Assembly: GCA_001793855.1 (NCBI GenBank)
Contig: MGIR01000001.1
Coordinates: 93,891 to 157,890, forward strand
Origin: Candidatus Wolfebacteria bacterium RIFCSPLOWO2_01_FULL_45_19
GTDB taxonomy: Bacteria > Patescibacteriota > Minisyncoccia > UBA6257 > GWB1-45-9
DNA length: 64,000 bases
Direction of reading: 5' to 3'
The notes beneath the pieces were generated by a model, which saw only the letters and a program-made list of their open reading frames with translations, had not been told where the DNA came from and searched no databases. Below are positions 8,166 to 52,500 of the stretch, piece by piece (position 1 is the first letter of the stretch; each line of letters opens with the position of its first letter). The translations under genes were made by a program, and so were the position numbers.

Positions 8166-8202
8166 AAAAACGTAACATCCACCACTTAAAACATGGGTGG
8201 CT

Positions 8203-8227
8203 ATACCGCTATTTGCGGTATTTTTTA
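8203..8227 (+). terminator. rho-independent terminator
   Basis: A hairpin (taccgc-tattt-gcggta) is followed by T6. Confidence 0.5.
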
Positions 8228-32915: not shown

Positions 32916-33416
32916 TCATCCTGCTCTCCTTCGAACATAATTTACAATATTCGCTATGGAAAAGAAAATATTCAGCAAAAGAAACACAATGGCAGACACG
33001 GCAACGGAATAAATTGTCAATAATACGCCGCCAATTGCCATCAATATAAATCCCCAACGCGCCGGGAGAACAACCAACCCGAAAGCAATGCCAATCAGTC
33101 CGAAAGAACCGAGCAATGACCAGATATCGGTAATCGAGTTGCTCAGAATTAATAAAATATACGCGATAACCGTCAATGCGATCAGTATCGTAGCTGTCCG
33201 AATTTTCGAAACTTTCTCTATAGCTAAAATTGCGGAAACAATAATCAATGCCTGCAATATCGCGAATAGCGTGTTGTTAAGAAAAAACCAGGCGTAAGCC
33301 GCCAAAATCACGCTCCCTGCCGCGAACAAAAAATTTCTGCCTCTTTCCCAAAAAACGCCTACTATGATTAACGTCAAAGCCAGATAAGCGACTGCGTCCC
33401 AGAGTTCAAAAGCCAT
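32916..33416 (-). CDS. hypothetical integral membrane protein (downstream of GT4 in a minus-strand operon)
   Basis: Four to five transmembrane segments are present. Confidence 0.4.
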   Translation of the reverse strand: MAFELWDAVAYLALTLIIVGVFWERGRNFLFAAGSVILAAYAWFFLNNTLFAILQALIIVSAILAIEKVSKIRTATILIALTVIAYILLILSNSITDIWSLLGSFGLIGIAFGLVVLPARWGFILMAIGGVLLTIYSVAVSAIVFLLLNIFFSIANIVNYVRRRAG

Positions 33417-36387: not shown

Positions 36388-38460
36388 ATGCCACGAGCGC
36401 CGAAGAAGAACGTTTCCGGTTTCCTGCAGGATATTAAACATTCTTCCGTATCGCTTCCTAGAGCGTCCGAGCGTCCGTTCGGAGTAGCTCCAACCAAGCG
36501 AGTTTTTAGCGCGCCTAAGAAAATTGTTTTTGTCAAAGAAAGAACAGTCGGACATAAAGCTCCGTTCAAAACAACTCGGGTTTTTACGATTTCCGCTTTA
36601 GCCGGACTTTTTATCGCGGGATTTTTTATTTTCAATATTTTCAATCTTAAAGACGATTTCACCGCTTCTGCGAAAAACATAAGCGCATATTTCGCCGACG
36701 CTAAAGTTGCGTTTTTAAATTTTAATCCCAGCGGAGCCAAGGCGTCTTTTTTGGAAGCCGGGCGCGAGCTTGAATCGGTAAGAAACAAAGCAAACCGGTA
36801 TAAATTATTTGAATTTTCAAAATTGCTTGGCTCTTTTGCCCCTGCATTCAAAGAAATACCGGCTTTTTTCGGCAATTTAGGCCAATTTAGCGAACTTGCT
36901 TTCAAAATTTCAAATATTTCCGAACGGTTGTTACGCGACGGCGCGCGCAGCGTTTTTAACGGCCGCGGCGAATATTTAATAAAAGACATTGAAATGTTGC
37001 GAACCGACATAAAAACATTAAGAGAGCTTTCGGTCACGCTAAGAAATCAAACACGTATGCTTGCCGATATGAATGGAGAAGATTATCTGGCGATGGACAT
37101 TGAACTTATGAGAATAGACGAACTACTTGGCGGAATTCTTTCAATTTTGAATGGGCCTGGCGAAAGGCATATAGCTATTTTTTTTCAAAATCCATCGGAA
37201 ATGAGGCCGTCCGGCGGATTTATTGGCAGTTACGCCGACGTTGTTTTCCAAAACGGAAATATTGTTAAATTTGACACACGCGACATTTACGACCCCGACG
37301 GCCAACTTGATTTAAAAGTCATTCCGCCGCGGCAAATGCAATCGCTTACCGCAACTTGGGGCGCGCGCGACGCCAATTGGTTCTTTAACTTTCCGACTTC
37401 AGCGCAAAAAGTTCTCTATTTTCTTGAAAAATCGAAAATGTACAGCGAGCGCATTATTACGTTTGACGGCGCGATAGCCGTTAACGCGAATGTCGTAAAA
37501 GACATTCTTGAAGTGGTGGGGCCGATAGATGTGCCGGAATACGATCTTGTAATAGACGCGGAAAATTTCCTGCTGGAAATACAAGAGGAAGTTAGAACCG
37601 GAAGAGACAGACAAATACAGCAACCAAAGAAAATTTTAAAAACAATAGCGCCGATTTTGATTAAACGCTTGGTGGCCATGAACGAGACGGGACAAAAAGA
37701 ATTGATTTTAAAAATAAGGGAACGCGTCGCCAAAAAAGACATTCAAGCATATTTTCGCGACAAACGCGTCCAAAATTTCGTTTTGAGAAGCGACGCCGCG
37801 GGCGAAGTATTTCAACTGCCTAGCGGATTTTTTGGAGATTATCTCGCGGTTGTTAACGCCAACATTGCCGGCGGCAAGACCGATATTTTTATGAGCCAGT
37901 CCATTGATTTGACATCCTCAATTGACGCGTCTGGACGAATACGAAACAACCTTCAAATTACAAGAACCCACGACGGCCATACGCAAAAACAAAGCTGGTA
38001 TCGCGCTTTGAACCAGAATTTTATAAAAATATTCACCGTTCCAGGTTTCAAAATAATTTCCGCGCAAGGCAATCACGCGAAAACCGTCAAACCGCAGATA
38101 GATTACGATTCAGCCGGTTATGTTAAAGACCCCGATTTGGAAAAAATTGAAGGTGAAAAAGGAAAAATTGAAATTTCAAACGAGGCCGGAAAAACAACGT
38201 TCGGGACGTGGTTTAGCGTGGAGGCCGGAAAAACAAAAACTCTGGAAATTGATTATGAACGGGAGGGTTTTTTGCCCTCTGACGGCAAGATTTATCAATT
38301 TGTATTTGAAAAGCAATCCGGCGTAAACAGTTCTTTTAAACTCTCGTTTGAAGCGCCGCCGGGTTTTCGTTGGCATGAATCCAACAGCGCGTTTTTCACT
38401 TACAAAACCGATAACCCAAACGGCAGAATCATTATCCATCTGACATTGATAAAATCATAG
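36388..38460 (+). CDS. DUF4012-like membrane-anchored protein
   Basis: An N-terminal transmembrane segment is followed by RPSGGFIGSY, recalled as characteristic of DUF4012 proteins from glycan/cell-envelope clusters. Confidence 0.5.
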   Translation: MPRAPKKNVSGFLQDIKHSSVSLPRASERPFGVAPTKRVFSAPKKIVFVKERTVGHKAPFKTTRVFTISALAGLFIAGFFIFNIFNLKDDFTASAKNISAYFADAKVAFLNFNPSGAKASFLEAGRELESVRNKANRYKLFEFSKLLGSFAPAFKEIPAFFGNLGQFSELAFKISNISERLLRDGARSVFNGRGEYLIKDIEMLRTDIKTLRELSVTLRNQTRMLADMNGEDYLAMDIELMRIDELLGGILSILNGPGERHIAIFFQNPSEMRPSGGFIGSYADVVFQNGNIVKFDTRDIYDPDGQLDLKVIPPRQMQSLTATWGARDANWFFNFPTSAQKVLYFLEKSKMYSERIITFDGAIAVNANVVKDILEVVGPIDVPEYDLVIDAENFLLEIQEEVRTGRDRQIQQPKKILKTIAPILIKRLVAMNETGQKELILKIRERVAKKDIQAYFRDKRVQNFVLRSDAAGEVFQLPSGFFGDYLAVVNANIAGGKTDIFMSQSIDLTSSIDASGRIRNNLQITRTHDGHTQKQSWYRALNQNFIKIFTVPGFKIISAQGNHAKTVKPQIDYDSAGYVKDPDLEKIEGEKGKIEISNEAGKTTFGTWFSVEAGKTKTLEIDYEREGFLPSDGKIYQFVFEKQSGVNSSFKLSFEAPPGFRWHESNSAFFTYKTDNPNGRIIIHLTLIKS

Positions 38461-38462
38461 TT

Positions 38463-40229
38463 ATGAATAACATCAGAAACTTTTGCATCATTGCGCACAT
38501 AGATCATGGAAAAAGCACATTAGCCGATCGTTTTCTTGAAGTAACCGGCACGGTAGAGAAAAGAAAAATGCGGGCGCAGTATCTTGACCAGTTGGAACTT
38601 GAAAGAGAGCGGGGGATTACCATAAAAATGGCCCCAGTTCGCATGTCATATCTCTTAAATCATAAATCTTATATCTTAAATCTGATAGACACTCCCGGTC
38701 ATAGCGATTTTTCCTATGAAGTATCCCGCGGCTTGGCTGCGGTTGAGGGTGCGATTCTTTTGGTTGACGCGACGCAAGGACTTCAAGCGCAGACGCTTAG
38801 CAATTTTAACGCCGCGAGAAAAATCGGCTTGAAAATAATAGGCGCCGTAAACAAAGTTGACCTTGAACCGCCACAGCTTGAAGAAACTGTGCGGAACTTA
38901 GCCGCGTTGCTGGAAGTGCCGCTTTCGGATATTTTCCGAGTTTCCGCCAAAACCGGTTACGGCGTTGAACGTTTATTAAACGCGGTCATAGATCGTGTTC
39001 CGTCGCCGCTTGAAGAGCCGAGTGATGTTTTTAAAGCATTGGTATTTAACTCGCTCTACGACGACCATAAAGGAGTCGTGTCTTTTGTCAGAGTTTTTTC
39101 GGGGAAAATAGCTTCCGGAAATGAAATTTTTTTGATGGCCAGCAACACGCGCTCAAAGCTTAAAGAAGTGGGCTATTTCGCTCCGGAATTAAAAAAAGGC
39201 GAAATGCTAAATGAGGGCGAAATCGGTTATTTGGCTACCGGAATTAAAGACCCGGACACTCTAAAAATCGGGGACACCATAGCCAGTGACCAAGTTAAGC
39301 CGTTGCCGGGCTATAAAGAACCGAAACCGGTACTTTTCGTTTCTTTTTATCCCGAAGACAATAACGAATACGAGAATTTAAAACAGGCATTGCGCCGCTT
39401 GCGCCTTAACGACCCGGCTTTGACGTTTGAGCCGGATTCAAATGAACTTCTTGGCAGGGGATTCAAATGCGGTTTTCTCGGCCGTTTGCATTTTGAAATT
39501 ACGGCAGAACGGCTTGAGCGTGAATTCAACTTAAAAACCATAAATAGTTTCCCGTCCGTAACATACGAAGTTGTTGAAAAAAATAAAACCAGCATCATTA
39601 CCAGCCCTGAAGATTTTCCGAACAAGCCGGACGCGATAAAAGAGCCTGTTGCTGAAGTTGAAATTCTCGCGCCGTCAAAATATCTCAGCGCGATTCTCGG
39701 TTTGAAAGAAAAGTTCAGGTTTCAAGACATAAAAACAGAAATCGTCGGCAGCTTAAACGTAATAAAAGTTATAATGCCGCTCGCGGATTTAATGCTTGAT
39801 TTTGACGACAATATAAAAACACTCAGCGCGGGTTTCGCGTCTTTCAGTTACGAACTTAAAGAAATGCAGCCAGCCGACGTTGTAAAGCTTGAGATTATCG
39901 TTGCCGGACAGCGTGTTCCCGGCTTGTCGCGGATCGTGCCCAAAAAAGATATCATACGAGAAGGCCGCGTTATGACTGAAAAACTTAAAAAGATTCTCCC
40001 CCGTCAGCAAATTTCGCAAACAGTGCAAGCAATTGCCGGAGGGCAGATAATAGCACGCGAAGACATCCCGGCTTTAAGAAAAGACGTTGCCGGCTATCTT
40101 TACGGCGGAGACAGAACGCGAAAAATGAAACTTTGGCAAAAACAAAAAAGGGGTAAGAAAAAAATGGCGGCAATGACCAAGATAGTCATACCGCCAAAGG
40201 CGTATTTGGAATTGCTTAAAAAACAGTGA
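38463..40229 (+). CDS. lepA: elongation factor 4 (LepA)
   Basis: The G1-G4 GTPase motifs are present (AHIDHGKST, DTPGH, NKVD) together with the LepA C-terminal domain. Confidence 0.95.
   Translation: MNNIRNFCIIAHIDHGKSTLADRFLEVTGTVEKRKMRAQYLDQLELERERGITIKMAPVRMSYLLNHKSYILNLIDTPGHSDFSYEVSRGLAAVEGAILLVDATQGLQAQTLSNFNAARKIGLKIIGAVNKVDLEPPQLEETVRNLAALLEVPLSDIFRVSAKTGYGVERLLNAVIDRVPSPLEEPSDVFKALVFNSLYDDHKGVVSFVRVFSGKIASGNEIFLMASNTRSKLKEVGYFAPELKKGEMLNEGEIGYLATGIKDPDTLKIGDTIASDQVKPLPGYKEPKPVLFVSFYPEDNNEYENLKQALRRLRLNDPALTFEPDSNELLGRGFKCGFLGRLHFEITAERLEREFNLKTINSFPSVTYEVVEKNKTSIITSPEDFPNKPDAIKEPVAEVEILAPSKYLSAILGLKEKFRFQDIKTEIVGSLNVIKVIMPLADLMLDFDDNIKTLSAGFASFSYELKEMQPADVVKLEIIVAGQRVPGLSRIVPKKDIIREGRVMTEKLKKILPRQQISQTVQAIAGGQIIAREDIPALRKDVAGYLYGGDRTRKMKLWQKQKRGKKKMAAMTKIVIPPKAYLELLKKQ
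38647..38685. repeat. 5 x 7-nt tandem repeat (TMAATCT) inside lepA
   Basis: tatctct taaatca taaatct tatatct taaatct. The gene length is normal relative to E. coli LepA. Confidence 0.6.
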
Positions 40230-40231
40230 AA

Positions 40232-41539
40232 TTACCATGAGTGTTTGAATTTCAGCTGTTCGTAAAGAATATTTAACGCTCTCACGTAAGCGCTTTGGGT
40301 CAAGGTTAGGTTTCGTTCTTGGCTTATTCTATATATTCCATCAATAACCGTAGTCATTATTTTTCTTAATTCTCCGTGCACCCAAAGCAAATCGTCGTAA
40401 TAATCAACCGCGTGCCTGCGCTCTCCGCGATTACGACGCCATTCGCAATACGAACCGGTAACTCCGCCGACGCCAGCGGCAATGCTTGTTACCACGTGTA
40501 TATTTCTGCGATCAAGGTCATCTTGCGCGGTTGGAATAATACATTCATTTCCTGGTTCCAAAACTAATTCCGCTTTTATTCGGTCAACGTTGTCGTTGGT
40601 TATCTGGTTTTCCATTGACGCAAGAACAAGTATATCAGTACGAAGTTCAAGCAATTCTTCTCCGCTGATCTGGTCCGCGAGATTTGCATCATAACTAGCG
40701 AAAGTCCCGTAAGTTTCATAATGTTGCTTCACATTTTTCACATCCAATCCCGAACGATTGTATATTCCGCCATTAACATCACACACGGCTCCAACGTAAT
40801 AACGGCTGAATTCTTCATCAAGCGTAAGGGCTGCGCAATTCATTCCAACATTGCCGTATCCATGGATAGTAAGCATTATTTTGTTCTTGCTCTCAAATAA
40901 ATTTGAAAGTTTCAAATAGCGATTAAGCAAGAAAAGCAATCCGCGAGATGTTGCGTCTTCGCGCCCGGGACAACCGTCATGTTCAATCGGTTTTCCAGTT
41001 ACAATCGCGGCAATGTTTGGAAGCTGAGTCAATGAATTTAACTCTGCGGCTTTGTTGTAAATCCAAAACATTGTTTCCGAGTTGCTTCCGACATCAGGCC
41101 CGGGAACATAATAATCAGGATTGAGTATCTTTTTAAACAGCAATCGTTCAGTTGCTTTTTCTATAATCGCGCGAATGAATCTTTTTTCGTAAGAAGTTGG
41201 ATTAATTGAGATTCCAAACTTCGCACCACCAAAAGGCAAATTAGCCTCGGCGTTTTTTAAAGTCATATCAAAACCAAAAGTGCGCAATCTGTCCAAGTCA
41301 ACGTCTTTATGCATTCTGAATCCGCCCTTAAATGGCCTGGCGCCGGATGAATGCGGATTGCAGTGTAAAACGCCCAACAACTTAAAAGTTTCTTGATGAT
41401 TACCGATATCAACCCGTATTTTTGTGTCACAAATATCTTTTGGCTCGCTAAGCTCATACATAAGCTTATCCGGAAGACCGGCAAGCTCGGCGTAACGCGC
41501 GACTTGAATTAGTTTTTCACTAAACATACCAACCTCCAC
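40232..41539 (-). CDS. gdhA: NAD(P)-dependent glutamate dehydrogenase (Glu/Leu/Phe/Val DH family)
   Basis: The lysine-containing GGAKFGI region is present, with GYGNVG Rossmann and PGPDVGSNSETMFW motifs. Confidence 0.85.
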   Translation of the reverse strand: MEVGMFSEKLIQVARYAELAGLPDKLMYELSEPKDICDTKIRVDIGNHQETFKLLGVLHCNPHSSGARPFKGGFRMHKDVDLDRLRTFGFDMTLKNAEANLPFGGAKFGISINPTSYEKRFIRAIIEKATERLLFKKILNPDYYVPGPDVGSNSETMFWIYNKAAELNSLTQLPNIAAIVTGKPIEHDGCPGREDATSRGLLFLLNRYLKLSNLFESKNKIMLTIHGYGNVGMNCAALTLDEEFSRYYVGAVCDVNGGIYNRSGLDVKNVKQHYETYGTFASYDANLADQISGEELLELRTDILVLASMENQITNDNVDRIKAELVLEPGNECIIPTAQDDLDRRNIHVVTSIAAGVGGVTGSYCEWRRNRGERRHAVDYYDDLLWVHGELRKIMTTVIDGIYRISQERNLTLTQSAYVRALNILYEQLKFKHSW

Positions 41540-41617
41540 ACCCAGAAATCAAAGAACATTACAATTATAAGCGTAGTTTGCGAAAAAGCAACCGAGGCGT
41601 TAGTATAAAGGGAATCT

Positions 41618-41881
41618 ATGCGTTTTTTCTTGATTTTTGCGTTCTTAATCGGCATAGGCGTATTGCTCGGTGCGCAAAGCGTCAACCTTTTCAAACAACA
41701 GCGCGAATTGCGCGCGGAATTTGCCGAAGTGTCGTCACGGTTGGAACGACTTATTCTGGAAAACAACGAATTGGAAAAAAGGATTGAATATCTGTTCTTT
41801 CCGGAAAATCTTGAAAAAGAACTGCGGGCTTTAAATTACAAAGCTACGGAAGAAAACTTGCTAATTTTAATCAATGAATAA
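41618..41881 (+). CDS. septum formation initiator family protein (FtsB/DivIC-like)
   Basis: An N-terminal transmembrane segment is followed by a coiled coil. The protein is 87 aa. Confidence 0.6.
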   Translation: MRFFLIFAFLIGIGVLLGAQSVNLFKQQRELRAEFAEVSSRLERLILENNELEKRIEYLFFPENLEKELRALNYKATEENLLILINE

Positions 41882-42452
41882 TCGGGGAATAATGGTGGTT
41901 TTCGGCGCAATGATTTCGATCGGGCTTATTTTTAGTTACGCGCTCCACGGCGGTCTGTTTCCGGTTGTTTTTGTAGGCGTTTCACCGATAACGTTAAAAG
42001 TCCTTGACGAGATGCATTTTGCGGCGATGCGCTATTACGGAAACATGGTTAAGACTTACGGCAGTGACCCGAACGAACTCAATGACTCGGAAACAAAACA
42101 AGAAGTGCGTCGCGCGTCGCTCAGTAAACTGATTGACGAAGTTTTGATAAAAAACGAATTAAAAAAACGTTTGGGCAAGAACTTGAATCTTGTGGTACGA
42201 AACAAGCTCGGAGAAATATCCAAAAACGAAGAATTCCGTAACGCCACTACGCTTTTTTACGGTCTTAACTTAAATGAACTTGAACGCGTTTTTCTTATAC
42301 CGCAAGCAGAATACGAAATTCTTGAAGGTCGCTTGATTATTGAACAGAAAGAAATAAAAGATTGGCTGAACAACGCGCGTCACGCGGCAAATGTAACGAT
42401 CTTGTCTTCGGAGTTCAAATGGAACGGTGCAAGTGTTGAATTGCGGGATTAG
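41874..42452 (+). CDS. hypothetical protein with N-terminal TM (SurA N-domain-like)
   Basis: The 3' end overlaps tRNA-Gly by 10 nt. Confidence 0.4.
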   Translation: MNNRGIMVVFGAMISIGLIFSYALHGGLFPVVFVGVSPITLKVLDEMHFAAMRYYGNMVKTYGSDPNELNDSETKQEVRRASLSKLIDEVLIKNELKKRLGKNLNLVVRNKLGEISKNEEFRNATTLFYGLNLNELERVFLIPQAEYEILEGRLIIEQKEIKDWLNNARHAANVTILSSEFKWNGASVELRD

Positions 42453-42513
42453 TTTAGTGGTAAAACGCCTGCTTCCCAAGCAGAAGATACCAGTTCGATT
42501 CTGGTATCCCGCA
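42443..42513 (+). tRNA. tRNA-Gly (anticodon CCC), no encoded CCA
   Basis: The acceptor stem is GCGGGAT/ATCCCGC. The anticodon loop is TTCCCAA and the T-loop is TTCGATT. The body is close to E. coli tRNA-Gly(CCC). Confidence 0.85.
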
Positions 42514-42553
42514 TAAAATTAAAAATGCCAGGATGCAACGCATGGGTCTAACC

Positions 42554-42583
42554 TTGACTTTTTTTGCATATTTGCTATACAAT
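42554..42583 (+). promoter_or_regulatory. promoter TTGACT-N16/18-TATACA/TACAAT
   Basis: The elements are in the sequence, upstream of the alanine-dehydrogenase-like gene. Confidence 0.5.
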
Positions 42584-42616
42584 AAATGCGTTTGAAAACT
42601 GAAAATGGAGAGTAGC

Positions 42617-43549
42617 ATGATAATAGGAGTTCCAAAAGAACTGAAAGCGTTTGAAGGAAGGGCCGGCCTTGATCCTTTGGGTGTTTTGGCGTTAATCCGG
42701 GAAAACCGTATCGTTTTGGTTGAGAATAGCGCGGGTGCGCTGGCAGGTTTTTCAGACGAAGAATATATTAAAGCCGGCGCTAATATATGTTCACGGAAAA
42801 AATTGTGGGAGTCGGCTGAACTCATAGTCAAAGTAAAAGAGCCGTTGCCCGAAGAATATCCGTTTTTCAGAAACGGACTTACGATAATGGCTTTTTTTCA
42901 CTTTTCCGCGAATTCCGAGCTAAAAGAAAAATGCGCGAGCGCCGGAATCAATGCGATTCCTTATGAAGAAATACAAACATCGAACGGGGAAAAGCCGATT
43001 TTGAAAGCGATGAGCGTAATAGCCGGAGAAGTTGCCGTTGATATGGCCGTCCAATATTTGCGGACAGAATACGGCCGTAGAGGAATTTTAATGTCCGATG
43101 CGGTTGTTACGATTATCGGAGCGTTAGGAAATGTTGGTTCCAGAGCGCATTCATTGTTAAAAAACCGCGCAAAAAGAATTTATATTTTGGATAATCGCGG
43201 CGCGCGTCCCGCAACTCCCGAAAATATCGTAGAAGCAATTTCTAAAAGCGATATCGTAATCGGCGCGGCTGTAAACAAAGCAGGCGGCGCCCCGCATTTG
43301 ATTACTCGCGATATGGTTAAAAGAATGCGTCCGGGCTCGGTTCTTATTGATGTAGCCATAGATGAAGGGGGGATTTCAGAGACATCTCGCCCGACAACAT
43401 ACGCTAATCCGTATTACTTTGATGAAGGCGTGATTCATGTTTGCGTAGCCAATTTGCCTGGAGGAGTTCCGCGTTCCGCGACTCCACGCCTTGTTAATGA
43501 ATCTCTGCCCTATATTATGGGAGTGGCGTCTGGAATAAATATTTTATAA
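42617..43549 (+). CDS. alanine dehydrogenase / PNT-family NAD-binding protein (short)
   Basis: The N-terminal MIIGVPKE is present. The Rossmann sequence is IIGALGNVG. The second ATG was chosen; an alternative ATG lies at 42605. Confidence 0.65.
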   Translation: MIIGVPKELKAFEGRAGLDPLGVLALIRENRIVLVENSAGALAGFSDEEYIKAGANICSRKKLWESAELIVKVKEPLPEEYPFFRNGLTIMAFFHFSANSELKEKCASAGINAIPYEEIQTSNGEKPILKAMSVIAGEVAVDMAVQYLRTEYGRRGILMSDAVVTIIGALGNVGSRAHSLLKNRAKRIYILDNRGARPATPENIVEAISKSDIVIGAAVNKAGGAPHLITRDMVKRMRPGSVLIDVAIDEGGISETSRPTTYANPYYFDEGVIHVCVANLPGGVPRSATPRLVNESLPYIMGVASGINIL

Positions 43550-43554
43550 AAATA

Positions 43555-43584
43555 AAAGAGCCGATTTAAAATCGGCTCTTTTTA
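43555..43584. terminator. bidirectional rho-independent terminator
   Basis: A hairpin (agagccgat-ttaaa-atcggctct) lies between convergent genes. Confidence 0.65.
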
Positions 43585-43595
43585 TCTTTTTTTGC

Positions 43596-46157
43596 CTAAA
43601 GTTTTTCGCGCTCAGCCCACGCGATGTTTATTTTGATTTTTTCCACAATCTTATCCATTGTTCGTTCAAGGCCTTCCAGACGATTCTTTTTGAAAAATTC
43701 TTCCACATCGGCGAGCATTTCTTTTGTCGCGAATCCACCCATTGGTTCAAGTATATCGACCAACATGAAGTAGACGCCGTGATAACGGCTTCTAACCTCG
43801 TCCCAATTACTTTTAATGAACTGCCAAACCATTTTTCTCGCACAATGGTTCGTACCCATGGCGGAAAATAGAATTGGAAAATCTTGTTTCCTTAATTCAT
43901 CACTGAGTGAAAAGTCAAGTATTGTTTTTACCGCATCCACGTCGCGAAAGTTACCCATAGCTATCAGAACTCGCGTTTTTTCTTCGTGAGAGTCGCTTTT
44001 TCTGTGAATTTCGCGCAATGCCGACAAGGTATCGCTGTCGCCGTTTAAGGCAACTATGCTATAAACTGCCTGTCTCAAATCGGGGTCAAGTTTCTCGCCG
44101 TTGATAAATTTTTGAAAACGGCGACTTGCGTTTTTAATTGTATCGGAATCGCCATATTTTCCGGCCATACTCAAAATAAATCCTCGCAAAAGAACGTCAG
44201 TATGCGTATCGGAACGCGATTTTTTCCATCCAAGCAACTTCACCCGCGAATCTATAAGCAGCTGAGCCGTAACGTACAAGCGCTTTAAAATGTCTTCTTG
44301 ATTTCTTTCCTTTAATAAATTGTCAAGAGTTCCTAAAACGTTTCCTATAATCAACCATACGTTATAATTCGTTTCTTGGCGATAAACCAAAAGCATTTCG
44401 AGAACCGAAGAAGTTTCAATTTCTCCAGCTTGAACCAAAGCAAACGCGTCGTCCAAAATGCACATTCTGTCAATCGCGGAAAACTTCTTTTGTTTAACGC
44501 ATTCCGAAAGTTTTTTTAACATACTCTCTGGATACGCAACCCTGTAAAAACCGGCATGTCCGGGATTTAGTTTAATCCAATCATCGCCTTCGGCTTCTAC
44601 ATTTATTTCGTGGCTCTCTTTATCAAGATAATGCCTGGAGGTCCCTCTTGGAGTTAATATTTCAAAAGGAATATTCCAACGCGCATCTTGTTCACTTGTG
44701 TTTTCGGGAAGATACATAAACTGCTTTTGCGAAATCCTAAGCCGGGTTTTTCCGTTTTCGTTGCCAAGGTTTTCCACCATGATTACCGGGTATCCTGATC
44801 GGCGAGTAAACCCCGACATCACATCCTTTACCGGTTTTCCGGAACAGTCCTCCAGCGCCTGCCACAAATCATCGGACACGGCGTTTCCATAAGCGTGCCG
44901 TCTGAGATAAAGGGCGACTCCTTTGTCAAAATACTTACCAAGATAGTGATGAAGCATGCGATTTACCGATGCTCCTTTGTTATACGATATGGAATCGAAT
45001 ATTTCGTTTATTTCTTTTGGATTTTTAACTTCAACTTCAATCGGATGCGTATTTTTCAAACCGTCTTCTCTCAACGCGTCTAAATGAACCTCCGCGACAT
45101 ACCTTTCCAACGCTTGCCATTTTGGAAACTGATTGGAAACAGCTCTGTCCCCGACATATGAGGCGAAGCCTTCATTCAGCCAAAGATGCGTCCACCAAAC
45201 CATGGTCACGTAGTTTCCGAACCATTGATGCGCCAATTCGTGATCCACTACCGACGCAACTCCTTCTTTGGACGAAGCCGATGGATTCTGCGGATCAACC
45301 AAAAGAGCTGTTTCTCTGTAAGTTATCAGCCCCCAGTTTTCCATGGCGCCAGCGGCTAAATCCGGCAGAGAAACCATATCCAATTTTTGCAGAGGATACG
45401 GAATACCGTAAATATTCGCGAAGTATGGCAGTGTATGTAAAGCGCATTCAAGCGCGAATTGTCCATGCGATTGTTTTCCGGGTCTTGTCCAGACGCGAAT
45501 AAGAACTCCGTTGCAATCCCTATTCGCTATACAATCAAGTTCGGCAACAACAAAAGCTACTAGATACGTGGACATTTTTGGCGTGATTTCGAAAAGCACT
45601 TTTTTCAATCCGTAACCCGCGTTCGTTATGGAACGGGGCTCCATGTTTGAAAACGCCGTAAAATTTTCAGGCATCGTCAAGGCAATTCTGAAAGTAGCTT
45701 TGAAATCCGGTTCATCGAAACAGGGGAATGCCCGTCGCGCGTCGCAAGACTCAAGCTGAGTCACGGCTCCCCAACGTTTCTGCCCGTCAATTTTATAGGA
45801 CGTTCGGTAAAATCCGCGCATATTGTCGTTTAGTTCGCCGTTAAAACTCAAATAAAGCATCGGGGTCATTCCGGGTTTAAGTTCAAGTTCCGAATCCTCG
45901 CCCTCAAAGCTCGCAGTTTCCATATCTTTATCATATGAAACTCTAAGCAATTCTTTTGAATTGCCGCAGTCAAGCATCGCGTAATTTATCTTTAAATCCG
46001 CGGCATTCAGAACTATTTTTGACGTGGCCTCAAGTACGTTGAGTTGTATGGATTCTTCGCCTTCAAAAACAAAATTGGCAAGATCCGGCTTTATGTGAAT
46101 GTTGTAATGCAGCGGTTTAACATTTCTTGGCAAACGATGCGGATTTAATTGCTCCAC
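43596..46157 (-). CDS. pepN: aminopeptidase N (M1 family)
   Basis: The HEXXH motif (HELAHQWFGN) is followed by LWLNEGFA and a GAMEN-like region. Confidence 0.9.
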   Translation of the reverse strand: MEQLNPHRLPRNVKPLHYNIHIKPDLANFVFEGEESIQLNVLEATSKIVLNAADLKINYAMLDCGNSKELLRVSYDKDMETASFEGEDSELELKPGMTPMLYLSFNGELNDNMRGFYRTSYKIDGQKRWGAVTQLESCDARRAFPCFDEPDFKATFRIALTMPENFTAFSNMEPRSITNAGYGLKKVLFEITPKMSTYLVAFVVAELDCIANRDCNGVLIRVWTRPGKQSHGQFALECALHTLPYFANIYGIPYPLQKLDMVSLPDLAAGAMENWGLITYRETALLVDPQNPSASSKEGVASVVDHELAHQWFGNYVTMVWWTHLWLNEGFASYVGDRAVSNQFPKWQALERYVAEVHLDALREDGLKNTHPIEVEVKNPKEINEIFDSISYNKGASVNRMLHHYLGKYFDKGVALYLRRHAYGNAVSDDLWQALEDCSGKPVKDVMSGFTRRSGYPVIMVENLGNENGKTRLRISQKQFMYLPENTSEQDARWNIPFEILTPRGTSRHYLDKESHEINVEAEGDDWIKLNPGHAGFYRVAYPESMLKKLSECVKQKKFSAIDRMCILDDAFALVQAGEIETSSVLEMLLVYRQETNYNVWLIIGNVLGTLDNLLKERNQEDILKRLYVTAQLLIDSRVKLLGWKKSRSDTHTDVLLRGFILSMAGKYGDSDTIKNASRRFQKFINGEKLDPDLRQAVYSIVALNGDSDTLSALREIHRKSDSHEEKTRVLIAMGNFRDVDAVKTILDFSLSDELRKQDFPILFSAMGTNHCARKMVWQFIKSNWDEVRSRYHGVYFMLVDILEPMGGFATKEMLADVEEFFKKNRLEGLERTMDKIVEKIKINIAWAEREKL

Positions 46158-46213
46158 TCACAACCTCCGTATTAAGTTTTTATGGTACAGCGGAATACAT
46201 AGTATTAAATTAT

Positions 46214-46244
46214 TTGACGATTGTCAATTAAGCTGTGTTATAAT
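46214..46244 (+). promoter_or_regulatory. promoter with extended -10 (TGtTATAAT)
   Basis: -35 TTGACG at 46214; TGtTATAAT at 46236-46244. Confidence 0.4.
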
Positions 46245-46258
46245 TAAGATTCTATCCT

Positions 46259-46786
46259 ATGAAAGAAAAAACACACGGCAAATTTTTAAGCAGACATATA
46301 AAAGACATAATATACGGCGCGAACGACGGCATTATAACAACATTCGCGATAGTGGCCGGCGTTGCCGGAGCCGCGCTTTCGGTGCGAATTATTTTAATAC
46401 TTGGATTCGCGAATCTTATCGCCGACGGCATTTCAATGGCGGCGAGCAATTATCTCGGCGGCCGTTCCGAAGCCGAAATGATGCGATACGAACTAAAATT
46501 AACACCGGAGAAAAATAACGTGATTGTTTCTGGAGCACTGACAACATTTTTTGCTTTTGTGTTTGCCGGCGCGATTCCACTTCTGCCGTTTATATTACTA
46601 ACTGACGGAGGAACGCTTTTTATCTCAAGCATCGCGACAGCTTTTGCCCTTTTTGCTGTCGGAGCGGCTCGCTCGCTTATCACTGCCGCAAATTGGTTTG
46701 TTTCAGGATTGGAAATGCTCGTCATAGGAGGAATTGCAGCGTCCGCGGCGTATTTCATAGGATTTGCTGTAAGTTTTGTAGTATAA
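46259..46786 (+). CDS. VIT1/CCC1 family iron/manganese transporter
   Basis: The motif DGIITTFAIVAGV is present with five transmembrane segments. Confidence 0.8.
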   Translation: MKEKTHGKFLSRHIKDIIYGANDGIITTFAIVAGVAGAALSVRIILILGFANLIADGISMAASNYLGGRSEAEMMRYELKLTPEKNNVIVSGALTTFFAFVFAGAIPLLPFILLTDGGTLFISSIATAFALFAVGAARSLITAANWFVSGLEMLVIGGIAASAAYFIGFAVSFVV

Positions 46787-46817
46787 TTGTGGTATGATTT
46801 TTGCCGGCTCTCAATAC

Positions 46818-47351
46818 GCCGATGTAGCCATACCCTTCAATCTGCGACCATTTCTTAATTTGATATTGGTCTATAATCTTAGTATACTAGGATTATGCCA
46901 AATCCTAAGAAGCCCAGGAGCAATTGTCTTATTTGCAGTAAAGAAACGAACCGCGCGGAATATAAATATTGCAGTAACGCATGTCAGCAAGAATATCAAT
47001 ACGATGTGTATATTCATAGATGGAAAAAAGGTGAAGAGAAAGGTTTAAGCTCAATCGGATTAGTTTCACCGTACATAAAACGATATTTACGCAGAAAGTT
47101 TAAAAATAAATGTTGTTTGTGCGAATGGGCAGAAATTAATCCGAAAACTGGATTAGTTCCATTAGTTGCTGATCATATTGATGGAAATTGGAAAAATAAT
47201 ATCGAGAAAAATCTGCGTTTAATTTGTCCGAATTGTGATTCGTTAAGTCCTACGTTTGCTGCGTTAAATAAAGGAAATGGACGAACAAATAGAACTCGAA
47301 GTAAACGGGCACAAGAAGGTCGTTTGTTGGCAATGAATATGCCGATGTAGC
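46818..47351 (+). mobile_element. candidate insertion: free-standing HNH endonuclease gene bounded by 11-bp direct repeats derived from the 5' end of tRNA-Thr
   Basis: gccgatgtagc occurs at 46818-46828 and again at 47341-47351 (the tRNA-Thr 5' end). The enclosed segment is AT-rich. Confidence 0.45.
46895..47350 (+). CDS. HNH endonuclease with zinc-finger
   Basis: The HNH motif (VADHIDGNWKNN...NLRLICPNC) is present with paired CxxC motifs. The CDS 3' end overlaps the tRNA-Thr 5' end. Confidence 0.7.
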   Translation: MPNPKKPRSNCLICSKETNRAEYKYCSNACQQEYQYDVYIHRWKKGEEKGLSSIGLVSPYIKRYLRRKFKNKCCLCEWAEINPKTGLVPLVADHIDGNWKNNIEKNLRLICPNCDSLSPTFAALNKGNGRTNRTRSKRAQEGRLLAMNMPM

Positions 47352-47414
47352 TTAGTGGCAAAGCAATGGTTTCGTAAACCATGGACGGCAGTTCAATTCT
47401 GCCCATCGGCTCCA
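47341..47414 (+). tRNA. tRNA-Thr (anticodon CGU), CCA encoded
   Basis: The acceptor stem is GCCGATG/CATCGGC. The anticodon arm is atggt-TTCGTAA-accat and the T-loop is TTCAATT. The 3' end is TCCA. Confidence 0.85.
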
Positions 47415-47435
47415 AGATTTATTCAAATATCAAAA

Positions 47436-48401
47436 ATGAAAAAACTTGACAGAGCAACGCTAATTGAGCTTCAGTGGCGCGATTTAATTTTTTGGCCGGT
47501 AACTCGTCCGCTTGGCATTTTATATGAATACGTTATTACGGCGATTGTAAAACTTATACGCCTCGTGATTCCGCGCCGTGACGCAACCGCACAAATTGAG
47601 GACCCACTAGACACGGCAGTAAGAAAAGAAATTTTCACTCTCGCAAACCTTGCTTCGTTTTACGGCTTGTTTCTTATCGGAGAGCTATTTTATGTAATCT
47701 GGGCGTTCACGACGAATCAACCTTCCGTTGAATTATGGTCAATTTCCGCATGGCTCCTTGACCTTAAAACGCCGGGAATCTGGACCATTGCCTGGCTCGT
47801 TACTGAAATCGTGCTGACGGACACCATTGACGGGCCGCTCGCCAGAACCAACGCGCGAGTAAGCGCCCTGGGCACTCTCTTGGACCACACAAGAGATTAT
47901 CTCGTTACTTTTGTCGCGCTTTTTTTCCTTATTGCCATCACGGCAATTCACCGCGACTGGGCGTTTTTGGCGCTTGCCGTCGCCAACGCCGCGGGGCTAG
48001 CTCTTTTTATAAGCTACCACGTGATATTTTTTAAAAAAATTGTCGTACGGGACGCGCGGATGCTTAGAGATGCCGCGTTATCCAACGGCAAACGTTGGAG
48101 CGCCTTTTTTAAACACGCGCTTCTTGAAGAATATCAGACCAATTTAACCGGAAGAATTCATTTCACAGCACTGGCTTTCACGGTCGGTTCAGGACTTTTT
48201 TATTACGCAACCGGAGCGGAATGGATTTATATCACGTTCACAATAGCCCTTACAGCGACCATCGTAGTCACTTCGTATTATTTGTACGAGCTTTGGGGAG
48301 AATACTACGCTCGTTGGCAAGTAAAAGCGCACGCGCGTTCTCAATCTTTTAAAGAAAGGGTTGCTCGGCGCATTGAACGCAAAAAAACACAAAACAAATA
48401 A
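47436..48401 (+). CDS. CDP-alcohol phosphatidyltransferase family protein
   Basis: The signature D-G-x2-A-R-x8-G-x3-D-x3-D is present as DGPLARTNARVSALGTLLDHTRD. The start was set at MKKLDR after the tRNA. Confidence 0.7.
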   Translation: MKKLDRATLIELQWRDLIFWPVTRPLGILYEYVITAIVKLIRLVIPRRDATAQIEDPLDTAVRKEIFTLANLASFYGLFLIGELFYVIWAFTTNQPSVELWSISAWLLDLKTPGIWTIAWLVTEIVLTDTIDGPLARTNARVSALGTLLDHTRDYLVTFVALFFLIAITAIHRDWAFLALAVANAAGLALFISYHVIFFKKIVVRDARMLRDAALSNGKRWSAFFKHALLEEYQTNLTGRIHFTALAFTVGSGLFYYATGAEWIYITFTIALTATIVVTSYYLYELWGEYYARWQVKAHARSQSFKERVARRIERKKTQNK

Positions 48402-48464
48402 TTCGCTCACGAATTTATTGCTTTCACTTCGCTAATAGGTTTCGTAAAGGATGGTTTGAGCTTA

Positions 48465-48494
48465 TTGGCCGTGCCGTTCCGGCCGTGGTATAAT
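48465..48494 (+). promoter_or_regulatory. promoter TTGGCC-N18-TATAAT
   Basis: The elements are in the sequence, upstream of prfB. Confidence 0.45.
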
Positions 48495-48509
48495 CAAAGC
48501 TCAAGAACG

Positions 48510-49566
48510 ATGAAAAAATTTGAAGACAGAAAACAAACGCTGAAAGAGCGCGCCCGACTTCTATCGGGCCGTCTTTGACGTATCGGGAAAAAAGAAAAAG
48601 ATAGAAGAGATTGACGGCGAAGTAAGCAATCCCGAAATATGGAAAGACCGCAGACGCGCGGAGGAATTGCTTAAAGAACGCGGCCAGCTTCACGAATTGG
48701 TCGCGCAGTTTGAGGAACTTGAAAAAGAAATTGAAGTTGCGGACGAGGGGAATATTGATGAGACAGAAAAAAAATTCAACAAACTTGAACTTCAACGGCT
48801 TCTTTCCGGAAAATATGATGCTTCCAACGCCGTGGTTTCAATTTTTTCCGGAGCCGGCGGACAAGACGCCGAGGATTGGACCGCGATGCTTTATGAAATG
48901 TACGCAAAGTACGCTGCAGAGCGCAAATGGCAAATAGTGATTCTGGACGAACGCTTCGGCGAAGTCGGCGCGAAAACCGGGCGTATGCCGTTAAAACACA
49001 TCTCTTTTGAAATAAAAGGGGGGCATGCTTTCGGCTATCTTAAGGGCGAGCAGGGAGTGCACCGCTTGGTGAGAACTTCCCCGTTTTCGGCGAAACAATC
49101 GCGCCACACCTCTTTCGCTCTGGTTGAGGTTTTGCCGGAACTTCCGGAAATAGAAGAAAAAAATATGGTTCTTCCGTCTGAGGACTTGGAAGTGGATTTT
49201 TCGCGCGCAGGCGGTCCCGGCGGCCAGAACGTAAACAAGGTTGAAACGGCTGTACGGATAACCCATAAACCAACCGGAATAACCGCGGCTTCGCGCTCAG
49301 AACGTTCCCAATCGCAAAATCGCGAGAAAGCGCTAAAATTGCTTAAAGCAAAATTATTTCGCTTTATGGAAACGGCTCAAATTAAAGAACTCGGCGCCCT
49401 GCGCACGAAAGTCAAGCCGGAATGGGGCAGTCAGATCCGTTCTTATGTTTTAAACCCGTATAAAATGGTAAAAGACCACCGAACCGGCGCGGAAACGGCG
49501 CAAGTGGAAAATGTGTTAAACGGCGAAATTGATATATTTATTGAAGCCGAGTTACAATTAGGATAA
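48510..49566 (+). CDS. prfB: peptide chain release factor 2, requires programmed +1 frameshift (join 48510..48575, 48577..49566)
   Basis: Frame 0 encodes [22 protein letters not shown] and then TGA. The +1 frame continues as DVSGKKK and runs into the 299-aa RF2 body, which carries SPF and GGQ motifs. Confidence 0.9.
48573..48579 (+). other. canonical RF2 autoregulatory +1 frameshift site CTT TGA C
   Basis: CTTTGAC sits exactly at the junction of the two frames. A weak GGG Shine-Dalgarno-like element lies upstream. Confidence 0.85.
49437..49558 (+). repeat. direct repeat, left copy (prfB 3' end)
   Basis: About 88% identical to 55497-55618. Confidence 0.8.
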
Positions 49567-49568
49567 TC

Positions 49569-52500
49569 ATGAATATTGAAAAATTGCTCCTGTTTTCGTT
49601 AATTGTTGTAATTTTTTGGACAGGGATTTGGGAGATAAATATAGCATTTGCCAATTTTAGCGACGATTTTGAAGCATATGAGGTTGATTCCTTGTTGAGT
49701 GATACCGCCGATTGGGAATGCAGCGGTTCTTCCGTTTGGAGGATAACAGATCAAGATTTTAATACAGGCACTCGTTCGGTGGGTCGCATAGAAAACACTG
49801 GTCACTCCCGTCATTGTTGGAGAAATTTTGAAGTTACGAAATCCGGGGTTTTTAAACTTTCCATAAAAAGACCCTCTACTTTTGGATTCGAAGGCCCAGC
49901 TTTTGAATTAAGAACAGGACCGGGTACTTCCGGCGATTTTGTTGCCAACTTTGCTTATAGTAATGATAGAACCATTTCGTGTAATGCCCCAGGTTTTAGT
50001 TTTACTTGTGGAACTTGGACTCCAAATGAATGGCAAGAACATGGCATAGCTTGGAATTCTGTCAATAATAAAATTCGGTGGTTTATGAATGGTGAATGGA
50101 CTGAATTTAAAAGCAGCGATATTCCTGCTCCCGCGAGCGCTACTATTAGTTGTTGCACCTCCGGCCATGAAGGTGTTTTTCTAGATGATATTAAGTTTAC
50201 TCCAGGAATTAAAAATTTAGAAATCACAGAACCTCCATCAACAGAAATTTCTGAGTCACCTTCAAATTTCGTTATTCAATTTGATACTGATGCAACAAAT
50301 TGGAACGGCAAGGTGGACGTTCAGGTTCGCGAGCTTACAGACCCTTTCCGTGATACCGGTATGCTTTCTGGCTACCAATCTTTCACTTTTTCAAGCGCGG
50401 GCACCAAAACGGTTGCTTTTACTAATCCTCTGAATTTTTTGCCAAGCGGAAGATACAAACTAACCGTTAGAGTATTTGCCTCTGTGCCTGGAGGAGATTT
50501 TCTGGAACTCGATAATATTTCCCGCATATTCCGCCTCCCTTCCGGATTTTTTACCGATCTTGATGAAGATTTTGAAGCATACGAGGTTGGTCAACAATTA
50601 GGCAAACAAGATAATTGGGAATGCAATGAGTCCATAGAAACGCACAGGTGGTTTGTTAATGATGAAAATGTTTTTTCAGGAGCCAGGGCTATACGTAAAA
50701 TGGGCGCTCATGATGCAATTTGTCGTAGAAATTTTGACAACGTTAGCAATGGGCAAATCTTTTTTGCCGCAAATCACGCGCAAGCAGACCCATTTAGCAG
50801 ATTAGCTTTTTCAGTTAGGAATGCGGCAGGCAATATAAATGATCAGTTCGGCGGCTCAGAAGATAGAATCGGACTTATTAATTTAAGAGGAGACGGAACG
50901 GTTGAATGTCACACTATTGAAAGCTCTTCTGTTTGCGGCACTCACAATATAGGCGAATGGGCTCAATATGGTATTGAGTGGGATGGTATATTAGGGCGCG
51001 TTCGTTTTAATGTTAATGGGGAGTGGACGGATTGGTTTGATAGTAATAACGCTCGCGATGGCGCGGAATTTTACTTTTTAGCCGCTGGCGCCGGCTCTGG
51101 CAATACTCAGGTTATGTTTATAGACGATATTCGTTTTGCTTTTGTTACTCCGGAACCAGAACAATTAAATCCTGTTATTATAGTGCCGGGGCTTTTGGGG
51201 TCGTGGCAGAAAGATGGTGAATGGATTATTGATCCGATTTTTCGTAAATATGATGAATTAATTCGTCTTCTTGACGTAAGTGGATACACGCCGGATGTTG
51301 ATTTGTTTACTTTTCCTTATGACTGGCAGCAAGGTGTAAGTTTGAGCAGCGATCAGCTTGCAGCAAAAATTGTCGAAATACGGAGCATTTGCCAGTGTCA
51401 AAAAGTGGATATAATCGCGCACAGCATGGGCGGTTTGGTGGCGCGTTCATATGCCCAAAGTGGTGATTATCAAAACGATATTGACCAAATTATCTTTTTG
51501 GGAACATCGCACGAAGGATTATCTTGGGCATACTTGTTATGGGAAGGAGGAGAAATAACGCCACAAATATTTTCTTTGGGCTTTGATAAAATAATGGAGC
51601 TTTATTTGAATTGGAAATCTATTATTTCTTTCGCTGGAAGTAAATTTGCTTATATCCAAAACGCCATTCTTTCAATTAAAGATTTGTTGCCGACTTATGA
51701 TTACTTGAAGGATGCGGATACTGAAATTTTGCGTAATTATCCTGATAATTATCCCGTCAATTTCTTTTTGGAACTATTGAATTCTTCTTTATCAGAAAAT
51801 AGATTGTCAGAACGCGGTATCAGAATTACTAATATTGTCGGCAACATAGAGCCAAACTTTATAGATGGCAAACTGGTAGATGAAACTTTGGGCACGATAA
51901 GGGTTGTGGATAGGCCTAATCTTTTACCGAAATGGGAGCATGGTTTTCCAGAAAATTTCGACGTACCATTTACCGACCACGGCTTGGAGTTCGATGAGGG
52001 AGATCGCAGAGTTACTCTTGAAAGTGCTTCTCACAACTTTTCTTCAACCGTTATCTCACGTGCCGATCGCAATCTTCACGCAAACTTGCCTGTGGTCGCC
52101 TGGCAGCAAATTCACGAAGCGTTATTCGGCATCCCATCGCCTGAGCGGGGAGTCCCTATTGTTATTGAAGAATCGTTGATTATACCGATTTTTTCGCCTG
52201 CTGATATCCAAATTATCGATCCGCTAGGCAGGAGAATTGGCAAGGATTTTTCAATTGGTCAGGAAATTAATGAAATACCCTTCGCATTCTACAGCGGCTT
52301 TAATAGCGATTTGGAATTTATTTTTATTCCCAATCCTCTTGATGGAGAATATCAAATCAAAGTTCAGGGAACCGATGAGGGCAGTTATGAAGTTCAATCT
52401 GCTTTTGTCAACGATGCAACTTCAACAGTTGCGACTTTTATGGCCAATATTCAAGAGAGCCTTGTTCAGAATCTGAGCTTTGTCTTTAATGTTTCCTCGC

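Follow-up and report, generated by a model that had tools for sequence, protein, structure and literature searches.

Organization of the HNH and tRNA-Thr locus

We analyzed a free-standing HNH endonuclease gene and the tRNA-Thr(CGT) gene that it adjoins in a 64,000-nt stretch of the Candidatus Wolfebacteria bacterium RIFCSPLOWO2_01_FULL_45_19 genome (the whole stretch is termed the window, and all coordinates are positions in it). The HNH open reading frame (ORF; 46895-47350, + strand), identified by profile matches and homolog alignment, encodes 151 aa and ends in a TAG codon formed by nt 8-10 of the tRNA gene, the last HNH codons and the stop together making up the first 10 nt of the tRNA (a 10-nt overlap). 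The tRNA-Thr(CGT) gene (47341-47414, + strand) was called by both ARAGORN and Rfam (70.6 bits), is intact and moves with the HNH gene in relatives. GC content is 0.352 for the segment 46829-47340 versus 0.437 for the window, and GC content at third codon positions is 0.285 in the HNH ORF versus 0.42-0.48 in the two adjoining genes, which encode a VIT1-family protein and a CDP-alcohol phosphatidyltransferase.

The sequence GCCGATGTAGC occurs exactly at 46818-46828 and 47341-47351 (+ strand), its only two exact copies in the window, and the second copy constitutes nt 1-11 of the tRNA-Thr gene. The direct repeat extends beyond this 11-mer, with 23 of 29 positions alike between 46800-46828 and 47323-47351. 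The 18 nt preceding the 11-mer (46800-46817, + strand) match 47323-47340, the last HNH codons, at 12 of 18 positions (P ~5e-4 against random window pairs) and are a candidate for what is left of an older HNH ORF at its 3′ end. Judged by this alignment, the upstream repeat copy resembles a junction between an HNH 3′ end and a tRNA 5′ end.

The initial annotation, made from the sequence alone, had described an AT-rich insert encoding a 151-aa HNH nuclease, bounded by an 11-bp direct repeat, overlapping the tRNA with its last codons and lacking an integrase; each of these elements was confirmed. ORF and domain annotation revealed no integrase ORF in 44500-49500, and an Rfam search of 40000-50000 (E <= 0.1) returned tRNAs only, with no intron around the HNH gene. 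The HNH gene is an intergenic ORF outside any intron and has its own promoter-like site.

Features of the HNH protein

The predicted HNH function rests on PHROG and PADLOC models: PHROG HNH families 14736, 1271 and 10822 matched the protein (E = 8e-14 to 3e-12), and its best PADLOC match was the "homing endonuclease" (HEase) model (E = 5e-9). Pfam matches were sub-threshold only (HNH_3, E = 0.06; a treble-clef domain at the N-terminus). The protein comprises an N-terminal CxxC...CxxxC zinc ribbon, an HNH core (CCLC...DHIDGN...N...CPNC) and a conserved basic C-terminal tail. Alignment of 25 homologs revealed invariance of the zinc-ribbon cysteines (C11, C14, C26 and C30), of the CxxC pairs C73/C76 and C111/C114, and of D93, H94, N102, N106 and N113, a pattern consistent with a zinc-stabilized HNH core.

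The AlphaFold (AF2) model, with a predicted local distance difference test score of 73.5, contains strands at residues 91-94 and 107-110 and a helix at 112-115, elements of a possible beta-beta-alpha-metal fold; residues 117-151 form the disordered yet conserved basic tail. Foldseek searches placed McrA, Cap5 and Cas9 HNH domains as the best, though weak, structural matches (E = 0.009-0.5), and the HNH core is 52% identical to that of phage T5 F-TflIV over 40 aa. A sequence search of the PDB returned a single match, I-HmuI, at E = 0.17 over 25 aa. An intron-encoded HNH of the I-HmuI type, residing in a group I intron, was rejected on this E value and on the lack of any non-tRNA Rfam match in 40000-50000.

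The family comprises 1907 clusters at 90% identity. The best homologs are 70-79% identical to the window protein, are nearly all 149-151 aa long and derive from many lineages of the Candidate Phyla Radiation (CPR). Because its closest HNH relative is just 79% identical, the window copy appears to be old and diverged yet intact.

Association of the HNH gene with tRNA-Thr in genomes and phages

To survey the genomic context of the family, we examined 80 species-level genomes carrying an HNH homolog. All 80 contained the homolog within 235 nt of a tRNA-Thr gene, and in 76 it lay directly upstream of this gene on the same strand. In CPR and a single Chloroflexia genome, the adjoining tRNA-Thr has the anticodon CGT; six filamentous cyanobacteria have TGT instead. 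The 10-nt HNH-tRNA overlap of the window recurs in 26 loci, and 11 more display overlaps of 21-38 nt. The upstream neighbor of the cassette differs by locus, being tRNA-Gly(CCC), tRNA-Thr(GGT), tRNA-Asp or protein genes, and no integrase or Zor gene was seen beside the HNH gene in the 80 loci.

Exceptions to the upstream order comprise HNH genes just downstream of tRNA-Thr (L016 and L066) and between tRNA-Thr(TGT) and tRNA-Tyr(GTA) (L068 and L070). In L016, L066 and L166, the HNH gene is located 58-236 nt downstream of tRNA-Thr(CGT). These alternative positions suggest independent insertion events.

The initial annotation had suggested a check for phage or homing-endonuclease affiliation. In the phage collection, 189 records contain homologs, full length and 32-48% identical to the window protein. 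Among 11 diverse examples drawn from these records, tRNA-Thr adjoins the HNH gene in eight unrelated phages, namely Klebsiella T5-like phage vB_Kpn_B01, Enterococcus phage iF6, Streptomyces phage Jada (gp14), E. coli jumbo phage WPEC5, Synechococcus phage DSL-LC03, Xanthomonas phage XbC2, an Ochrobactrum phage and Salmonella phage MET_P1-88. In DSL-LC03, the annotated HNH coding sequence overlaps the tRNA-Thr 5′ end by 9 nt. The tRNA-Thr genes beside phage HNH genes share little beyond general tRNA features and an NGT anticodon loop.

Several of these phage features are missing from the deposited annotation. The HNH ORF is unannotated in MT909815 (iF6, 41124-41519) and PV804860 (MET_P1-88, 37644-38009), as are the ARAGORN-predicted tRNA-Thr genes beside the HNH gene in PV654397 (WPEC5) and OR003938 (DSL-LC03); in iF6, ARAGORN contradicts the annotated tRNA strand. 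Three IMG/VR contigs (L114, L120 and L122) encode a distant HNH protein (47% identity over 32 aa of the core) ~180-270 nt upstream of tRNA-Thr(CGT) on the same strand, possibly representing further members of the tRNA-Thr-linked family. In most viral contigs with a similar tRNA-Thr(CGT), a close HNH homolog is missing, and these contigs are uninformative for CPR.

Presence/absence polymorphism and horizontal transfer

We assessed the distribution of the gene in 97 metagenome contigs containing the window-type tRNA-Thr(CGT) with at least 500 bp of upstream sequence. The HNH gene is directly upstream of the tRNA in 33, absent from 63 and downstream in one, and an identical 74-nt tRNA was found in both HNH-carrying and HNH-free contigs. 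One syntenic pair, L203 with HNH and L210 without it, is 85% identical on one side of the locus and 78% on the other. In 22 of the 63 empty contigs, tRNA-Gly(CCC) is located within 20 nt of tRNA-Thr; carriers have the cassette placed between these two genes. Where present, the HNH gene is syntenic with tRNA-Thr, yet 63 of the 97 contigs lack it, a distribution that upholds the mobile insertion suggested by the initial annotation.

The empty-site comparison proposed in the initial annotation succeeded in the metagenome contigs and failed for the window's own lineage. The closest relatives of the window's CDP-alcohol phosphatidyltransferase (65%, 59% and 42% identity) carry Cpn10/Cpn60 upstream and have no tRNA-Thr, VIT or HNH gene there. 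Because synteny is lost at these relatives, they permit no direct empty-site comparison for the window lineage.

Sequence comparisons among carriers revealed recent exchange. The HNH gene and tRNA form a block of ~520 nt with 94-98% nucleotide identity, even where the 1-kb flanks of the contigs compared cannot be aligned or reach just 66-73%; the block is 97.9% identical between L156 and L234, whose flanks have no similarity, and 94.6% between L003 and L155, whose flanks are 69-73% identical. The high-identity block begins 9-29 nt before the ATG and ends at the tRNA 3′ end or 43-50 nt past it, except between L001 and L156, where it ends within the tRNA at about position 25. These boundaries indicate that the HNH gene and part or all of tRNA-Thr move jointly. 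Contig L145 keeps just the last 31 HNH codons in front of its tRNA.

Phages exhibit the same polymorphism. Where T5 has 8 bp just 5′ of tRNA-Thr(UGU), Salmonella phage MET_P1-88 carries an HNH segment of 398 bp. The two tRNA-Thr genes are identical in their 3′ part and differ exclusively across the 5′ two-thirds, where, among other changes, the anticodon stem has been swapped completely. A further phage homolog, CB7_249 of a Pectobacterium phage, has independently been listed as a free-standing homing endonuclease without a counterpart in relatives (PMC7344957).

Orphan tRNA-Thr halves flank the cassette

A longest-exact-match test between tRNA-Thr and the region upstream of the HNH gene detected the exact 11-mer in none of 76 relatives, and the long matches that it returned were other complete or intron-bearing tRNA genes, such as that in L065. 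This test is misleading because the orphan tRNA halves upstream of the gene have diverged. The upstream layout of carriers comprises a tRNA-like 5′ half that starts with GCC[GA], like tRNA-Thr, and ends in the anticodon loop (in L051 it retains the CGT anticodon), followed by a conserved block, AATCTnC[A/G]ACCAnTTCTAAnTTTGAC...TGGTCG...TATACT, with the ATG 6 nt further on.

After masking of complete tRNAs, an nhmmer profile of the tRNA-Thr 5′ half identified orphans in 14 of 99 upstream regions and none in reversed or shuffled controls. With one exception, the matches begin at model position 1, and every one of them stops 54-68 nt ahead of the ATG. More decayed 5′ orphans were recognized by eye in the window and in L004, L021, L134 and L222. 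In a multiple alignment (A2), window positions 46818-46897 are collinear with the orphan 5′ halves of L155, L133, L001, L051 and others; the alignment of the resident tRNA with the orphans stops at the anticodon loop.

In the window, the decayed orphan occupies 46818-46840 (+ strand), at the same offset as the nhmmer-detected orphans of relatives. Its order is the 11-mer (46818-46828), a deletion of ~14 nt that removed the D-arm, CCCTTCAA, and then the conserved left-end block of the cassette (46841-46894, + strand), which recurs in relatives. By this alignment, CCCTTCAA represents a remnant of the anticodon stem and loop, and the 11-mer a remnant of a ~38-nt duplicated tRNA-Thr 5′ half ending in the anticodon loop. 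The initial annotation had interpreted the repeat as a partial duplication of the tRNA target: the duplication is real, with homologous orphans in at least 14 of 99 loci, and is distinct from a short target-site duplication at the 5′ end of the tRNA.

At a distance of 16-35 nt past the resident tRNA, a corresponding 3′-half profile revealed orphan tRNA-Thr 3′ halves in 17 of 109 carriers (control, 0) and also in 4 of 60 contigs without HNH; it detected none in the window. The 5′ and 3′ orphans have exactly complementary acceptor strands (GCCAGCG/CGCTGGC) in L220, L226 and L233. L231, which lacks HNH, contains an entire tRNA-Thr enclosed by outer halves that pair through their anticodon-stem strands (GCCCC/GGGGT). 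Together with the HNH remnant of L145, the 5′ and 3′ orphans and this nesting indicate that a cassette of HNH gene plus tRNA-Thr became lodged within an older tRNA-Thr gene, with subsequent decay and sometimes loss of HNH. Insertion, decay and then loss is the life cycle expected of homing endonuclease genes.

Additional sequence elements were observed near these loci. In the flanks of L156/L244, L171/L192, L231 and L162, the motif CCCCGTTAGAAAT and its reverse complement ATTTCTAACGGGG recur beside the cassette or the orphan halves, forming a long hairpin in some of these unrelated contigs; possible identities for the pair are a repeat element, a terminator or an outer anticodon stem that extends further. 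In L065 (3671-3925, + strand), a tRNA-Thr(GGT)-like gene is split directly after the anticodon by an insertion of ~185 nt, whose left junction follows ...CGCCATGGT and whose right junction lies between ...GGAGGTGT and AAGCGAAGGCG.... ARAGORN missed this interrupted gene, and no Rfam family was found at the insertion even at E <= 1. The same type of motif occurs upstream of the cassette in L042, L045, L047, L048, L053 and L071, and intron-like insertions in tRNA-Thr(GGU) seem common beside the HNH cassette; a link between the two, such as collaborative homing, is conceivable. The L065 contig, from Nomurabacteria, also contains an Rfam group I intron at 8020-8218 (- strand; 60.6 bits, above the gathering score).

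Expression signals

A promoter scan of the conserved left-end block identified a -35 box, TTGATA (46860-46865, + strand), a 17-nt spacer and a -10 box, TATACT (46883-46888, + strand), with a score of 10/12. Promoter-type sites of this kind are present in 58 of 99 loci versus 34 of 495 shuffled sequences, in which they are evenly spread. The distance from the end of the -10 box to the ATG is 6 nt in 37 loci, as it is in the window, 7 nt in eight and 8 nt in four (49 of 99). This fixed short distance suggests that the HNH mRNA is leaderless. A scan of 46600-47600 found no terminator-like site, so the HNH ORF and the tRNA are probably co-transcribed.

The -35 box is flanked by an inverted repeat, GACCA/TGGTC in the window (46846-46850 and 46867-46871, + strand). 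In many loci it takes the form [C][A/G]ACCA, ~16 nt, TGGT[T/C][G], and its arms co-vary symmetrically (CAACCA/TGGTTG, CGACCA/TGGTCG and ACGACCACT/AGTGGTCGT). Arms of at least 6 nt were found in 42 of 99 loci versus 72 of 495 shuffles. This symmetry makes an operator for a dimeric binder plausible, perhaps for the nuclease itself (autorepression).

Elsewhere in the window, a second weak tblastn match to the HNH protein (32965-33048, - strand) proved spurious, since it lies within a membrane-protein ORF but in a different frame. Weak sub-threshold Rfam matches to the enterobacterial small RNAs STnc430 and STnc240, located where the aminopeptidase N gene has its 3′ end (43546-43662, - strand), are most likely due to chance.

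A proposed target-replacing cassette and its alternatives

Collectively, these observations make it likely that the window harbors an old copy of a mobile, free-standing homing-endonuclease cassette that specializes on tRNA-Thr and carries a replacement tRNA-Thr. Presence/absence polymorphism, transfer, linkage to tRNA-Thr and invariant nuclease residues all accord with the homing-endonuclease-like mobile insertion that the initial annotation had put forward. In this reading, the cassette would consist of the promoter block (-35 box, -10 box and flanking inverted repeat), the HNH gene and a tRNA-Thr(CGT) that starts within or just after the end of the ORF.

From these features, we infer a cycle of cleavage, repair and regulation. 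The nuclease would cut a cassette-free tRNA-Thr gene in or near the anticodon arm, a site suggested by the ends of the orphans and by the differences between T5 and MET_P1-88. Repair would then copy the cassette from the donor, with tRNA-Thr sequence providing the homology. Of the old tRNA, the 5′ half would persist as an orphan upstream of HNH, joined in some loci by an orphaned 3′ half on the downstream side, while the cassette-borne tRNA-Thr would assume the function of the displaced gene. The orphans would subsequently decay, leaving in the window 11 nt of the acceptor/D-arm start and the anticodon-loop remnant. Once RNase P cut at the 5′ end of the tRNA, the HNH message would lose its stop codon, which may hold nuclease expression low, and the inverted repeat around the -35 box may act as an autorepression operator.

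Several points weigh against this reading. The cleavage activity and target site are deduced from sequence, and the search for a close relative of the window genome, needed to compare it directly with an empty site, yielded none. Just 14 of the 99 loci contain a 5′ orphan at statistically detectable strength; the window orphan is too decayed for an nhmmer score and rests on the 11-mer and the alignment; and in most loci, such as L133, the 5′ and 3′ orphans have no matching acceptor stem. The resident tRNA-Thr is intact and sometimes identical in contigs with and without HNH, so that a carrier would need some way to avoid cutting itself. Moreover, nearly all HNH ORFs are full length and remain 60-79% identical across very divergent CPR lineages, and host-level selection could be the source of such intact, conserved ORFs, although a host-beneficial role fits the presence/absence and transfer data poorly.

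In one alternative, the HNH protein would be a domesticated host factor tied to tRNA-Thr within one transcription unit, acting either as a regulator (zinc ribbon plus operator) or on tRNA-Thr or its precursor. The constant linkage and order in 76 of 80 genomes, the intact ORFs with 60-79% identity across CPR classes, the promoter serving both genes and the conserved palindrome at that promoter all favor this explanation. We nevertheless regard it as unlikely: the gene is missing from about two-thirds of the contigs with the same tRNA-Thr, 94-98% nucleotide identity across unrelated flanks denotes recent transfer, the gene takes differing positions and strands with respect to tRNA-Thr (L016, L066, L166 and the phages), no variation occurs in the catalytic nuclease residues, and the phage homologs behave like insertions or deletions between close relatives. 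Slightly less likely still is that the gene is indeed a free-standing homing endonuclease while the 11-bp repeat of the window is a chance match or local slippage unrelated to insertion. With the exact 11-mer upstream of HNH in none of 76 relatives, one match of at least 11 nt among ~80 loci would be unsurprising; against this, the match begins exactly at tRNA nt 1, extends with its flank to 23/29 (the flank alone at the P value given above), sits at the position of the relatives' orphan 5′ halves and aligns through the anticodon-loop remnant.

Two further explanations appear far less probable. The flanking halves might belong to a split or intron-containing tRNA from which the HNH gene and inner tRNA are removed at the RNA level, as the pairable anticodon stem kept by the outer halves of L231 around its nested tRNA-Thr, the 3′ orphan T-stems that stay paired through differing sequences, and the intron-like insertions in neighboring tRNA-Thr(GGT) genes would allow. 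This is very unlikely given that Rfam detects no intron in the window, that the window 5′ half lacks a D-arm and has no 3′ half downstream, and that orphan acceptor strands are usually mismatched; we also know of no bacterial splicing route for an insert of this type. Least probable of all is a remnant of an integrase-type genomic island, for which tRNA genes are classical integration sites, or a defense HNH such as Zorya ZorE, whose HNH domain gives weak matches. Neither integrase nor Zorya partner genes are present among the housekeeping neighbors, the duplicated part is the tRNA 5′ half rather than the 3′ end, and the best PADLOC match is the homing-endonuclease model. Zorya type II ZorE itself was rejected, since its HNH domain alone matches at 13-22 bits versus a 600-bit cut-off, with no ZorA or ZorB beside the gene.

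A wider form of the homing-cassette reading is more tentative, and we lean slightly against it as a whole. It holds that a self-contained cassette, independent of introns and inteins, splits tRNA-Thr in the anticodon arm and brings a full replacement, that tRNA-Thr(CGU) is thus exchanged across CPR, and that the family has followed tRNA-Thr from phages, whose hosts span at least four bacterial phyla, into the chromosomes of CPR, Chloroflexia and cyanobacteria. If true, this would constitute a target-replacing strategy for homing endonuclease genes, with a target specific to one isoacceptor family.

Relation to known systems and implications

The closest functional parallels come from phage tRNA clusters. 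T4 SegB is a free-standing homing endonuclease within a tRNA gene cluster that recognizes tRNA-gene DNA and spreads itself together with neighboring tRNA genes (PMC2330249). Maturation of the downstream tRNA-Arg severs the segB stop codon from its ORF, and low expression has been proposed as a result (PMC2330249). The window locus shares with SegB a nuclease gene among tRNA genes and a stop codon that tRNA maturation would cut off. However, SegB belongs to the GIY-YIG rather than the HNH family, making the resemblance one of analogy and not homology; it targets a T-psi-C motif common to many tRNAs instead of one isoacceptor family; and it is a phage rather than a chromosomal gene, for which orphan tRNA halves are not described.

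The T5 F-Tfl HNH genes (2004 work cited in PMC2330249 and PMC5714182) are likewise located in a tRNA cluster, and in F-TflI and F-TflII the ORF shares 14-23 nt with the 5′ end of a tRNA gene; control of their expression by transcript processing has been proposed (PMC2330249). Their similarity to the window protein is confined to the HNH core, they are not specific for tRNA-Thr, and T5 itself has no true homolog at its tRNA-Thr. The full-length phage homologs, annotated as "HNH endonuclease", are likewise mostly beside tRNA-Thr and present or absent among close relatives, but they differ in residing in phage tRNA clusters in either position and orientation relative to tRNA-Thr. Integrase-borne islands and prophages provide a further parallel, in that the incoming element restores the target tRNA with a copy of the displaced part and leaves a direct repeat; the cassette, by contrast, has no integrase, duplicates the 5′ half rather than the 3′ end and measures ~0.6 kb. 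We therefore view the cassette as analogous to T4 SegB and the T5 F-Tfl genes while apparently representing a new architecture.

A full-text literature search, incomplete in its coverage, returned no description of the CPR cassette or its tRNA-Thr association, and the novelty of both is accordingly provisional. Free-standing homing endonucleases in T4 and T5 tRNA clusters have so far been regarded as oddities of phages whose tRNA specificity is loose. The present HNH family keeps to tRNA-Thr in phages and in at least three bacterial phyla, and it occurs often in CPR bacteria, whose genomes are streamlined; relatives of the cassette adjoin tRNA-Thr in hundreds of these ultra-small organisms, in some cyanobacteria and in many unrelated phages.

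The orphan halves on both sides of the HNH-tRNA block suggest that the problem of not killing one's own target gene has been solved by a replacement tRNA, a strategy that would render a core translation gene horizontally mobile. If the nuclease recognizes tRNA-Thr gene DNA, it would represent a compact (151-aa) sequence-specific nuclease and an example of expression control through tRNA processing of a stop codon, and the cassette would serve as a marker of recent gene flow among uncultivated CPR lineages.

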